Positions 6,495 through 62,164 of a DNA stretch of 64,000 nucleotides are shown in pieces. Position 1 is the stretch's first letter. Every line of letters starts with the position of its first letter. The notes below the pieces were generated by a model, which saw only the letters and a program-made list of their open reading frames with translations, did not search any database and was not told the origin of the DNA. The DNA comes from a virus. Both the position numbers and the translations under genes were made by a program. The DNA is taken from the IMG/VR virus record IMGVR_UViG_3300028859_000013, positions 47,324-111,323 of that record; one strand, written 5' to 3'.

Positions 6495-6527
6495 AAAAAG
6501 AGAAATGATTAAATCATTTCTCTTTTT
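6495..6527. terminator. bidirectional terminator
   Basis: AAAAAGAGAAATGAT/ATCATTTCTCTTTTT between convergent genes. Confidence 0.75.
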
Positions 6528-6928
6528 TATATGTTAAATTTTTTAGTGCTTTTTGCTAATTCTAATTCAGTTTCTAACTTGCCTTTTTTATGATTATATA
6601 AAGTGAATGATTGAGTTTTATTTATTTTCCGATCTGTCAACTCATACCATTTATTATTCATTTTTACTAATATATCAGATTCATAAGTACTTGATAGTTC
6701 ATCTACTAATTTAATATCTTCACACCTCCCAGTTATACTTTTATTTATAGTTAAATAATTAAAATCATACTTATAAATTTTAAAGCATTGAAATGTTATC
6801 ATATGATTTAATATCATTTCAGAAATTAAATCAAAAAAATCAATATTATATGTTATGCAGTCATTCATTAAATTCATGATTGATATTTCTGTGTTGCGTA
6901 AATCTTCAAAGGTTTTTATATATTTCAT
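6527..6928 (-). CDS. CTS-like/KFNI family protein
   Basis: MKYIKTFED...KKFNI. Confidence 0.8.
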   Translation of the reverse strand: MKYIKTFEDLRNTEISIMNLMNDCITYNIDFFDLISEMILNHMITFQCFKIYKYDFNYLTINKSITGRCEDIKLVDELSSTYESDILVKMNNKWYELTDRKINKTQSFTLYNHKKGKLETELELAKSTKKFNI

Positions 6929-6973
6929 GATATTATATATTAAATTAAATATTTATTTTTTATATATAATGCT

Positions 6974-7333
6974 ATGAAGCATTTAAAAATATATGAAGCA
7001 TTTAAAGAATCTGATGTCAAAATAGGAAATTATGTAATATTAAACGTTAAATTTAAAGATTTTGGATATTCTTTATCTGATAATCAAAAAAATACTCTTG
7101 TCGAATATTTAAATAATACAATATGTGAAATTGTTAATATAACTACTAGTTATTCTGGTATCCAAGAGATAGATGTTAAATATAATAATATACCGTTTAC
7201 TCTTAATGATTGGTTCGGTGTAGGAAGAACTATTACATTAGATATTACAGATATTTTTGATATGTCAGATTCAAAAAAAGAACTAATTGATAGACATAAT
7301 TTAAGGCAAGTAGTAAATAAATTTAATATATGA
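6974..7333 (+). CDS. CTS-like/KFNI family protein
   Basis: MKHLKIYEAF...KIGNYV...NKFNI. Confidence 0.8.
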   Translation: MKHLKIYEAFKESDVKIGNYVILNVKFKDFGYSLSDNQKNTLVEYLNNTICEIVNITTSYSGIQEIDVKYNNIPFTLNDWFGVGRTITLDITDIFDMSDSKKELIDRHNLRQVVNKFNI

Positions 7334-7635
7334 AGTATTTAAAAATATATGAAAAATATAATAATTTGCCTATTCTTGGTGATTATGTCGTAGTTTATTG
7401 TGAATCAATGAATGAAAAATTTAACGATTTTATAAATAATAATATTGGTAAGTTAAATAATTACGGTAGAATAACAGATCTTGCTTGGGTTGAGTATTTT
7501 AATATTCCAGAAGAATTAAAAAAACATTTTGATGATGATAAATATGCTATACTTAATACAAATACTATTAAATATTTTTCTAGTGACAAAAAAAATGTAG
7601 AAGCGTATTTGAAAGCTCAAAAATTTAATATATAA
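7330..7635 (+). CDS. CTS-like/KFNI family protein
   Basis: MKYLKIYE...LGDYV...QKFNI. Confidence 0.8.
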   Translation: MKYLKIYEKYNNLPILGDYVVVYCESMNEKFNDFINNNIGKLNNYGRITDLAWVEYFNIPEELKKHFDDDKYAILNTNTIKYFSSDKKNVEAYLKAQKFNI

Positions 7636-7638
7636 AAT

Positions 7639-8154
7639 ATGAAATTGAAAAGATTTAATGAAAGTGTTCATGAAGATTATGTCGAAATACTTCAAGATAA
7701 AATTAAAAATGATAAAAAAATTATTAATAGATTTGAATTTTATTTTGATAACATGAGTAATACATTTGAATGGGATTCTGATAATATTACAATATTTGCA
7801 ACTCCTTATTGGGAAGAAAATTTAAATTTACCTATTGATATTCTTATTGATGATACCGATCGTAATATTGTTTTTGAATTAAAAGAATTAACTTCACAAA
7901 AAGACGTTGATAATACTATAAATTATTATTATGAAATAATAGATTCATTAACATTAAAATTAAATAAAATATCAGAATTGAATAGTGTTATTCCTATTAT
8001 ATTAAATAAATTGAGTATTATAAAATTTGATAATATTATTATAAAATCTATTGACGATATAAAAAAATATGATATTGATGAATTAGTAAAATTATATAAT
8101 TACTTATATAAACAATATCCTGAAATATTTTTAGCTAAAAATTTTAATATATAA
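7639..8154 (+). CDS. CTS-like/KFNI family protein
   Basis: MKLKRFNE...KNFNI. Confidence 0.8.
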   Translation: MKLKRFNESVHEDYVEILQDKIKNDKKIINRFEFYFDNMSNTFEWDSDNITIFATPYWEENLNLPIDILIDDTDRNIVFELKELTSQKDVDNTINYYYEIIDSLTLKLNKISELNSVIPIILNKLSIIKFDNIIIKSIDDIKKYDIDELVKLYNYLYKQYPEIFLAKNFNI

Positions 8155-60459: not shown

Positions 60460-60597
60460 AATATATTTTTTAATAAAAACAGAGAACTTAAATTTAGTTC
60501 TCTGTTTTTATTTTATATACAATTTTTAATTGACCAGAATCATAAATTATATTATGACAGTTATTTTTTTATATATAATTAAAATTACAAATAAAAT

Positions 60598-61491
60598 ATG
60601 GTATTAGAATCAAAAGGTACTCCAGATATATTACTAAATATTATTACTAAATATGATAGTGAAATCATATATAGTTCTAAAAATTTAACAACATTATTAA
60701 TAGATATAAACGAAGTTGATTTAGTCGCTAGTTTGACTATTAATTTTAAAAAAAATGATAGTAAGAATAATTTTTCAGGAGATTTAAATTTTGATGATTG
60801 TATAAATTCAAATTTTAAAAATTGTATAATAAATTTAAATGTATCATATTTTAATAAATCTTTAATAATTAAATCTTTGATGCATGAGCTAACTCATTTA
60901 TATGAATTGTATAAAATAAAAGATATTTATACTAAGTCAAAATGGAATAGAATGAAAGTATTATATGACACAAGAAAACAAATTAACAATAATAGTTTAT
61001 TTTATTTTATAGATATTTTTTATTTATCTCTACCATTTGAAGTTAATGCAAGAGTTTCCAGTGTTTATACTTATTTATCTGATAAAAAAATTAAAGATAT
61101 AGATATTCTAAAAAAATTTTTAGTAGAGACAATTGAGTGGCAGAATATGTTAAATTTAAAAAATTTTGAATATAAACAATTATATACTGACTTAATAAAC
61201 TCATATATAAACGATAAAGTTTTTCTTTATGAAATATTTAATTTATTTAATTCTAAAATGAAAATAAAAACAAAAATAAATTCTGATACAGATTTATATA
61301 ATTATTTAAAAAATTCTAGTAGATATTTTAAGTCAGTATCATCAAATTTTATAAAAAAACTATTAAAAGTATTAAATAGAGTATCTGACGAATCATTAAA
61401 AGAGGGATATTGGACGTCTTCAACAAAAATAGTAATTTACAAACAATATATAAAAGAAAATAAAGATATTGATTATCTTAAATTTTTATAA
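60598..61491 (+). CDS. HExxH metallopeptidase-like protein
   Basis: HELTH..YLSLPFEVNAR. Confidence 0.65.
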   Translation: MVLESKGTPDILLNIITKYDSEIIYSSKNLTTLLIDINEVDLVASLTINFKKNDSKNNFSGDLNFDDCINSNFKNCIINLNVSYFNKSLIIKSLMHELTHLYELYKIKDIYTKSKWNRMKVLYDTRKQINNNSLFYFIDIFYLSLPFEVNARVSSVYTYLSDKKIKDIDILKKFLVETIEWQNMLNLKNFEYKQLYTDLINSYINDKVFLYEIFNLFNSKMKIKTKINSDTDLYNYLKNSSRYFKSVSSNFIKKLLKVLNRVSDESLKEGYWTSSTKIVIYKQYIKENKDIDYLKFL

Positions 61492-61508
61492 AAAATAAAT
61501 AAATAAAT

Positions 61509-61805
61509 ATGTCAATAGATAGAAGAATTGTATCAATATTATATTACAATAATATAACTGATATTAATAATGTGGAAGAATTTATAGGAGAAAAAAATGG
61601 TTATTATGATATTAAAATAAATGGAAAAATTAAATCATTAAAAATTCCAGATAATGAATATACCAAGCGTACTAAAATAACTACAAAAGTAACTACAAAC
61701 ACAACTACAAACACAACTACAAAAGCAATCACAAAAGTAACTACAAAAAAATTGGAAAATAAAAATAAAAAATCAAATGATGATGATTTTATTACGTCTA
61801 TTTAA
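61509..61805 (+). CDS. hypothetical protein with Thr-rich repeats
   Basis: TTKV/TTNT repeats. Confidence 0.65.
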   Translation: MSIDRRIVSILYYNNITDINNVEEFIGEKNGYYDIKINGKIKSLKIPDNEYTKRTKITTKVTTNTTTNTTTKAITKVTTKKLENKNKKSNDDDFITSI

Positions 61806-61825
61806 TTTAAAAATATAAATATATT

Positions 61826-62164
61826 ATGAAAATTGCAAAATTTAATGAAACTATTGGATATCAAGATAGAAGATATAAAATTGATTTAGAATTATTAAGT
61901 AAGCTAGTATTAGATAAATCTATAAGAAAAGAACTAAAATTATTTAAATCTCATATAGATAGTTATTTAGAATCAGTATATGATATGATAGAATATGGAA
62001 GAGGTGATGTTTTTTTATATTCTATAACAAATGAGTTCAAAATAGCATACATTAAAAGTGCTAAATTTAGTAATACATTACAAACGGTTCCAGTAGAAAC
62101 ATTAATCGGTTTCGATTTAGAAGAATATAAAGTATTCAAAGATTCTGAAAAATATAATTTATAA
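61826..62164 (+). CDS. CTS-like/KYNL family protein
   Basis: MKIAKFNE...EKYNL. Confidence 0.78.
   Translation: MKIAKFNETIGYQDRRYKIDLELLSKLVLDKSIRKELKLFKSHIDSYLESVYDMIEYGRGDVFLYSITNEFKIAYIKSAKFSNTLQTVPVETLIGFDLEEYKVFKDSEKYNL

Follow-up and report, generated by a model that had tools for sequence, protein, structure and literature searches.

A shared C-terminal peptide paired with an N-terminal octapeptide looks like an address label on small proteins of unrelated folds in a megaphage

Short terminal peptides that address diverse proteins to a protein shell are known from described systems. In phage T4, the diverse internal proteins IPI-III share only the capsid-targeting sequence (CTS) MKTYQEFIAE, in which residues 4 and 7 target the protein and gp21 cleaves at I-x-E, and Alt is made with a propeptide at each end (PMC3012670, PMC9026906, PMC8442874). 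For encapsulin cargo, a short C-terminal peptide suffices to direct diverse proteins to the interior surface of an HK97-fold shell (PMC7355545). Here we describe small phage proteins of unrelated folds that share both a start, an octapeptide (the N-terminal tag), and an end, K-[FY]-N-[IL] directly before the stop codon (the C-terminal tag). They are encoded in a 64,000-nucleotide stretch (the window, meaning the whole of the DNA analyzed) that covers bases 47324-111323 of the 111-kb IMG/VR contig IMGVR_UViG_3300028859_000013. With the same start and the same end on otherwise dissimilar proteins, this two-ended system looks like an address label. A jumbo-phage survey that called an expansion of ~35 copies in phage G unprecedented has no mention of the tagged family (PMC7824862), and a literature search with the tag strings gave no match and found no description of the C-terminal tag.

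An earlier note on this DNA had listed ten gene ends of the form [KN][FY]N[IL]-stop. A six-frame scan found the motif exactly at the stop in all ten (Table 1), and across the 153 genes of the whole contig there were 17 such ends, against 0.06-0.09 expected from composition. Internal copies in contig proteins numbered 13, with 12.2 expected. To collect related loci from IMG/VR and prokaryote genomes, a degenerate DNA pattern spanning both tags was used; the 1051 unique proteins of these loci had 335 terminal copies (0.22 expected) and 32 internal ones (33.6 expected). The motif is confined to the C-terminus, with internal copies at chance level. The universal part of the C-terminal tag reads [LIM]-x-x-[ND]-[AST]-[NK]-K-[FY]-N-[IL]-COOH, and the K[FY]NL endings are the commoner form (100 of the 150 best matches to a family profile described below). 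The N-terminal tag is the octapeptide M-K-[YH]-[IL]-K-x-[FY]-E, with I or L at position 4, F or Y at position 7, and E at position 8 (96% Glu), while its P3 residue varies (T, K, and others). The two tags co-occur significantly (Fisher p = 4e-7 for the window and 3e-10 for the contig), although the claim that all ten genes have a CTS-like start was too broad. Three intact genes have variant starts (MKLKRFNE, MITKFKIFE, and MKIAKFNE), and 23626-23760 has no N-terminal tag because it is the 3' remnant of a split gene. KFNI is likewise present at 33415, but not as the end of a separate gene, as open reading frame 33140-33364 runs on past an in-frame TAA. Eight of the ten named genes are therefore intact and two (33140-33415 and 23626-23760) are broken. 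Tagged proteins were slightly more acidic than untagged ones (median isoelectric point 5.9 vs 6.6), a difference that is not diagnostic.

The codons used in the motif indicate what is being conserved. Rare synonymous codons were enriched within it, with TTC at 20% vs 14% in the background, TAC at 18% vs 10%, and AAC at 32% vs 12%, and in the N-terminal tag TAC and CAC were likewise enriched; therefore selection acts on the protein. This comparison of synonymous variation, which the earlier note had proposed, counts against a DNA explanation. Position matters as well. In two natural head-to-tail fusions of SH3-like units, P0004 (370 aa, three units) and P0005 (243 aa, two units), the internal N- and C-terminal tags have degenerated, and the internal C-terminal tags of such fusions read KYGL or KLQV. 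The terminal-only motif and these decayed internal tags favor a peptide that requires a free C-terminus.

The C-terminal tag is also portable across unrelated folds and does not mark one diverged family. In the loci collected with the two-tag pattern, together with the contig, 365 of 1216 unique coding sequences carry the C-terminal tag, and BLAST sorts the middles of the tagged proteins into 189 components. Only 112 of 405 tagged proteins matched a profile of the SH3-like middle, and 256 C-tagged proteins did not match it. Among 71 longer C-tagged proteins, 15 have ankyrin repeats, 5 have leucine-rich repeats (LRRs), and one each has a methyltransferase, an ExoX-like, and a TIG domain; all 20 of the ankyrin and LRR proteins have the C-terminal tag, and most have an MKY/MKH-type start. 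No Pfam or PHROGs match above threshold was obtained for the ten window proteins or for ten consensus-like relatives. Two tagged proteins were modeled with AlphaFold2, and both models have a confident domain between low-confidence ends, which would place both tags outside the folded core. The 8158-8499 model has a predicted local distance difference test (pLDDT) score of 84, with residues 1-8 below 50, the last three residues at ~62 on average, and a helix at 99-111. The 7639-8154 model scores 87, with residues 1-8 and 169-171 below 50. Against PDB and BFVD, Foldseek gave only generic SH3-like matches for the former and no match for the latter, and an ESM Atlas search matched only viral hypothetical clusters.

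The contig has 23% GC and a CheckV completeness of 16%, and it ends just past the portal gene. Its products include a tail sheath, a head-closure protein, and a portal of the T4 gp20 type (Pfam E = 7e-63). This portal shares 63% identity with its counterpart in the 735-kb phage LR756501 and 48% with those of 634-642-kb genomes; together these genomes represent the Mahaphage clade, for which Bacteroidetes are the predicted hosts (PMC7162821). The window thus comes from a ~700-kb Mahaphage-like megaphage. DNA of the phage is present in peat metagenomes from several studies, and Bacteroidota-type TAnnTTTG elements lie upstream of some genes of this genome. A search of the 111-kb contig, at 16% completeness, for the prohead protease (Peptidase_S77) and the major capsid protein (Gp23) gave no match, and the search controls gave none either.

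The two-tag DNA pattern is virus-specific, with 102 stretches in IMG/VR, all of 20-28% GC, and one in 596 Gb of prokaryote genomes. That one match, L116, lies on a 3.5-kb contig of a Muribaculaceae metagenome-assembled genome (CAYVSY010000070.1) and is probably phage DNA binned with a Bacteroidota genome, which would agree with the predicted host phylum. The C-tag DNA pattern had 36-101 exact matches per 217-330-kb contig of the clade, compared with 1-3 for a control. Extrapolating contig counts by CheckV completeness, we estimate roughly 100-250 tagged genes per genome in the clade whose portals are at least 83% identical. Near the portal, 33 of 494 genes had the C-terminal tag at portal identities of 83% or more, with none among 118 genes at 73-76% and none among 190 at 62% or lower. 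In the published Mahaphage genomes, the C-tag pattern was at control level, while the N-terminal tag had 0, 11, 28, and 3 copies. Because there are Mahaphages with the N-terminal tag and no C-terminal tag, the former is older and wider in range, and the latter is a clade-specific addition. Small-gene arrays with the same N-terminal tag (starts such as MKYLKTFES and MKHLKKFNES) and unrelated C-termini were seen in the Mahaphage genomes LR745206 (L009, L012, and L013) and LR756500 (L011).

Array content was compared across related phages, as the earlier note had suggested, and was found to differ by whole-cassette insertions and deletions at junctions. In two relatives, the sheath is 79% identical and a neighboring 187-aa gene is 95% identical. 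Both have orthologues of 6527, 6974, and 7639 in the same order at 51-72% identity, and both are without 7330-7635 and without the entire block 8158-12242. The tagged genes form tandem arrays among late structural genes; these arrays sit between the sheath gene and the 95%-conserved late gene, and also beside the portal. Tagged genes evolve faster than their structural neighbors, with whole cassettes gained or lost at gene junctions.

Taken as a docking label, the motif makes good sense of these results: K-[FY]-N-[IL]-COOH is probably a portable label at the protein level that docks to a shared partner. The earlier note had offered a second address label (ejection signal, docking motif, or degron) as one of two ideas, and the motif does behave as a protein-level, position-specific, portable label, being C-terminal only, carried by unrelated folds, enriched in rare codons, and decayed when internal. 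More tentatively, we propose in full that a docking motif at the free C-terminus and the N-terminal octapeptide label a binder repertoire for the virion. By analogy with the systems above, the virion is a possible partner of the docking label, though we hold that identification with some doubt. In this proposal, shared machinery would read both ends, and the most likely reader would be the virion during its assembly. The role of the T4 CTS would fall to the N-terminal tag, and the C-terminal tag, like encapsulin cargo-loading peptides, would provide a second attachment to the prohead core or capsid, so that a library of binders, packaged or displayed, would be delivered along with the DNA. The labeled set would be very large and made up of fast-evolving small soluble proteins, mostly binder-type modules (SH3-like barrels, ankyrin repeats, and LRRs). 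We counted late context toward the virion, as tagged arrays share the motif TTWWTATATA with structural genes. Extended to the whole proteome, such two-ended peptide addressing would route 100-250 interchangeable binders per genome into or onto the virion or another single machine, which we regard as rather unlikely. It is similarly doubtful that this addressing yields a combinatorial, rapidly shuffled arsenal built on an N-terminal tag of ancestral origin and a C-terminal hexapeptide peculiar to the clade. To our knowledge, nothing of such scale or C-terminal logic has been described for any virus of bacteria.

Several points weigh against virion loading. The N-terminal tag does not contain the T4 cleavage motif L/I-x-E, reading x-F-E instead, and there is no conserved Glu before the C-terminal tag. 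LR756501 (735 kb), whose portal at 63% identity is the nearest among published relatives, has neither tag, and the tag system therefore does not belong to the conserved head machinery; among relatives, the tagged gene beside the portal is itself optional. Several large IMG/VR contigs are repeat assemblies of one phage from separate samples (their loci are 100% identical), which makes the per-genome counts non-independent. We know of no packaged set that approaches 100-250 cargo species per genome.

The main rival to virion loading is docking to a protease or chaperone, in which the tags would place proteins on an AAA+ protease, a chaperone, or a PDZ-type C-terminal reader encoded by host or phage. 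The outcome would be scheduled degradation of the tagged proteins, or else a substrate-adaptor library that sends bound host proteins to destruction; we consider docking of this kind improbable. SspB with its ClpX-binding tail and the poxvirus ankyrin/F-box proteins would be the analogies. The need for a free C-terminus and the pattern aromatic-x-hydrophobic-COOH both fit, this pattern being typical of C-terminal peptide readers (PDZ class II ligands, DegS YxF, and ClpX C-terminal motifs). The carriers are mainly binder modules (ankyrin, LRR, and SH3-like), and poxviral ankyrin proteins combine variable repeats with a conserved C-terminal recruiting module in a comparable way (PMC9414399, PMC4353913). 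However, no candidate reader was identified, and the genes stand in late structural contexts, not behind host-type TAnnTTTG promoters, which is a poor match to early host takeover. Marking between a tenth and a quarter of the proteome with a degron would also be costly, and the N-terminal tag would be left unexplained.

The conserved unit could instead be the DNA of the gene junction, ~40 nt comprising the C-tag codons, the stop/start overlap, and the N-tag codons, with the peptide as a by-product. Its role would be translational coupling or re-initiation, a recombination site for cassette shuffling, or an internal promoter. Some constraint at the nucleotide level was observed. The last codon is NTA in 343 of 365 tagged genes (ATA 155 vs ATT 5, against a background near 1:1), TGA serves as the stop in 57% of tagged vs 21% of untagged genes, and stop and start overlap as ATGA at 182 of 304 junctions; NTA and TGA are preferred because NTA+TGA contains the ATG of the next gene. 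The whole-cassette differences at junctions among related phages would also suit a recombination site. Yet the nucleotide constraint is restricted to the last codon and the stop, and the remainder of the motif varies synonymously, with rare codons enriched at F/Y, at N, and at Y/H of the N-terminal tag, so the earlier note's second idea, conserved DNA ends, keeps a marginal footing. The exact string it gave for these conserved ends, AAATTTAATATATAA, occurs once in the contig. Purely nucleotide-level, frame-independent conservation was not seen, as the motif is at chance level in other frames as well as internally. DNA downstream of the motif is unconserved, with terminator hairpins after some copies and the next ATG after others, and the tag is kept at array ends that precede terminators, where no gene comes next. 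At 135 of 304 junctions the C-terminal tag adjoins a gene without the N-terminal tag, and the N-terminal tag exists in phages without the C-terminal one. On balance, we think it quite improbable that the junction itself is what is conserved.

A promoter within the motif had also been suggested, from an embedded TATATA. In this genome, KFNI+TAA does spell TTWWTATATA 4-5 nt before the next ATG, like bona fide intergenic sites (e.g. 6934) and at the same spacing as before some array-first genes, but the K[FY]NL endings, which are the family majority, and the ATGA-overlap junctions do not spell it. A promoter-like role of KFNI+TAA is at most a secondary use. TTWWTATATA was found upstream of the sheath gene, a baseplate-hub-like gene, the gene after the portal, and the first array genes, and not upstream of the clamp-loader or RNase H genes. 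It was also observed ~17-27 nt or 4-7 nt (possibly leaderless) upstream of structural and unknown genes, for example before 745, 15340, 18309, 19848, 27639, 52696, and 60598. TTWWTATATA is a candidate phage late promoter, and Bacteroidota-type TAnnTTTG elements stand instead before a separate gene set.

An ordinary paralogous family, in which one small domain has its first and last secondary-structure elements best conserved and the ends have no separate function as tags, is similarly hard to credit. In its favor, six window genes, and most tagged copies within the contig, align end to end at 25-40% identity, while 7639-8154, 33420-33863, and 61826-62164 do not, which makes the earlier description of the middles as mostly dissimilar half right. 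A profile of 12 paralogues matched 2274 cluster representatives (302 at E < 1e-10), almost all of them 95-125 aa and full-length, with the form MK[YH][IL]Kx[FY]E ... IGDYV ... K[YF]N[LI]. The SH3-like core noted earlier in four genes was borne out for 6974, 7330, 8158, and 11492, whose five-stranded barrel has a GD[YF]V strand close to the N-terminus, and was not found in 7639, 33420, or 61826; SH3-like members also share a longer C-terminal module of ~25 residues, a strand plus a helix. Nevertheless, ankyrin, LRR, and other Pfam domains have these ends too, as does a different fold that was modeled with confidence, and both ends are low-confidence coil outside the fold. The C-tagged proteins that the SH3-core profile left unmatched, and the different phylogenetic ranges of the two tags, are also difficult to reconcile with a single family. 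An intramolecular clasp between the two ends was rejected as unlikely, since the termini are floppy in both models and the tags also occur on ankyrin and LRR solenoids, which hold their two termini far apart, so that two independent linear motifs would be the more plausible arrangement.

Table 1. Tagged genes, their fragments, and an inserted transposon gene in the window; the fourth column gives the gene end listed in the earlier note
Coordinates	Strand	Feature	Listed end	Remark or basis
6527..6928	-	tagged gene, 133 aa, MKYIKTFE ... KKFNI	6527	first of divergent pair, terminator-like hairpin downstream
6974..7333	+	tagged gene, 119 aa, SH3-like core KIGNYV, end NKFNI	7333	TGA stop overlaps next ATG (ATGA)
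7330..7635	+	tagged gene, 101 aa, SH3-like core, end QKFNI	7635	cassette missing from both related phages compared
7639..8154	+	tagged gene, 171 aa, MKLKRFNE ... KNFNI, different alpha/beta fold (predicted)	8154	AlphaFold2
8158..8499	+	tagged gene, 113 aa, predicted SH3-like barrel then C-terminal helix, end DKFNL	8499	AlphaFold2
11492..11743	+	tagged gene, 83 aa, short SH3-like member, end NKFNI	11743	sequence
22015..22263	+	tagged-gene 5' fragment, start MKI-stop-KFE		N-terminal tag broken, TAA at codon 4 (22024-22026)
22360..23595	+	TnpB (IS605 OrfB / Cas12f-like)		Pfam OrfB_IS605, Cas12f1-like_TNB, HTH_OrfB_IS605
23626..23760	+	3' fragment of the same split gene, C-terminal tag TKFNI kept	23760	matches residues 93-127 of L091:7358-7741
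29220..29291	-	isolated remnant of a C-terminal tag, ...NGNKFNL-stop		only 23 open codons
33140..33415	+	tagged gene with in-frame TAA (33362-33364), end NKFNI	33415	tag intact 16 codons past TAA
33420..33863	+	tagged gene, 147 aa, MITKFKIFE ... DKFNI, not SH3-like	33863	sequence
61826..62164	+	tagged gene, 112 aa, MKIAKFNE ... EKYNL	62164	optional insert, head-gene module after portal

The individual genes (Table 1) include both stable and decaying members. Orthologues of 6527-6928 occupy the same position in two related phages at 68-72% identity, and orthologues of 7639-8154, at 46-63% identity, retain both tags. The fragment 22015-22263 matches residues 5-88 of the intact 127-aa protein L091:7358-7741, and a TnpB-only element of the IS605 family has split one tagged gene into 22015-22263 and 23626-23760. 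The nonsense codon in 33140-33415 is a CAA-to-TAA change, and intact 106-aa orthologues have Q at this position; in relatives, orthologues of 33420-33863 sit directly 3' of the 33140-33415 orthologue. The remnant at 29220-29291 is probably a decayed copy of a tagged gene. The gene beside the portal, 61826-62164, occurs in one relative whose portal is 97% identical and is missing from those at 92%, 85%, and 74%. We had considered it as a conserved core protein like gp67/gp68, which was ruled out because the gene is optional among close relatives.

Other genes in or beside the arrays have the N-terminal tag without the C-terminal tag (8503-9198, 11073-11450, 53553-53765 on the minus strand, and 53913-54125). 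The plus-strand gene 10318-11061 codes for 247 aa and starts with MKTYIQFINE, identical to the T4 CTS MKTYQEFIAE at 7 of 10 positions, the I-x-E pattern included, which is a much closer resemblance than that of the N-terminal tag; one relative, L021:7234-8055, starts MKTYLQYIKE and ends ANFNM. Large DUF7487 proteins are encoded beside the sheath gene (4524-6278, plus strand) and beside the portal gene (62159-63796, minus strand), the second with additional zinc-finger (DUF4379) and REase-like (MTES_1575) domains. Both genes are variably present among close relatives and look like mobile inserts of the homing-endonuclease type.

Regardless of function, the tagged family is among the largest lineage-specific gene expansions seen in a phage, compared with the ~35 copies in phage G (PMC7824862). 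Should the tags prove to be address labels, sequence alone would define the cargo set for an uncultivated ~700-kb phage, and the purpose of the many small unknown genes of huge phages, a long-standing question, would become directly testable. They would also offer a minimal, portable means of getting proteins into large capsids.

Each of the known systems resembles this one in part. PeSL cassettes and hyperplastic regions of T4-type phages were reportedly described by Arbiol, Comeau, and Krisch in 2010. As there, cassettes of small accessory genes come and go between conserved late and early genes, and a repeated sequence marks the cassette borders. PeSLs are non-coding promoter-plus-hairpin units, whereas the borders here are coding, with synonymous variation above background and selection at the protein level. 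The poxvirus ankyrin/F-box (PRANC) proteins are likewise a large viral multigene family in which variable binder repeats are joined to a conserved C-terminal recruiting element (PMC9414399, PMC4353913). In PRANC proteins this element is a folded F-box-like domain serving the eukaryotic SCF, while the tag has 6-10 residues, belongs to a phage of a bacterial host, and is found on non-ankyrin folds too. Encapsulin peptides are a precedent for a C-terminal anchor, and a short C-terminal peptide on diverse proteins is what is found here as well. They have no sequence resemblance to the tag, and they serve one or few cargos, usually following a flexible linker where here a helix precedes the tag. 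The T4 internal proteins differ in that T4 has no shared C-terminal peptide, which is the motif under study, and in their number, 3-5 compared with hundreds of carriers; the N-terminal tag also has no L/I-x-E site. As in T4, however, a short terminal peptide is carried by otherwise unrelated, fast-evolving accessory proteins in a phage with a T4-type portal, and the N-terminal tag, shared at the extreme N-terminus, likewise starts with MK and conserves hydrophobic residues at positions 4 and 7 as well as a Glu.

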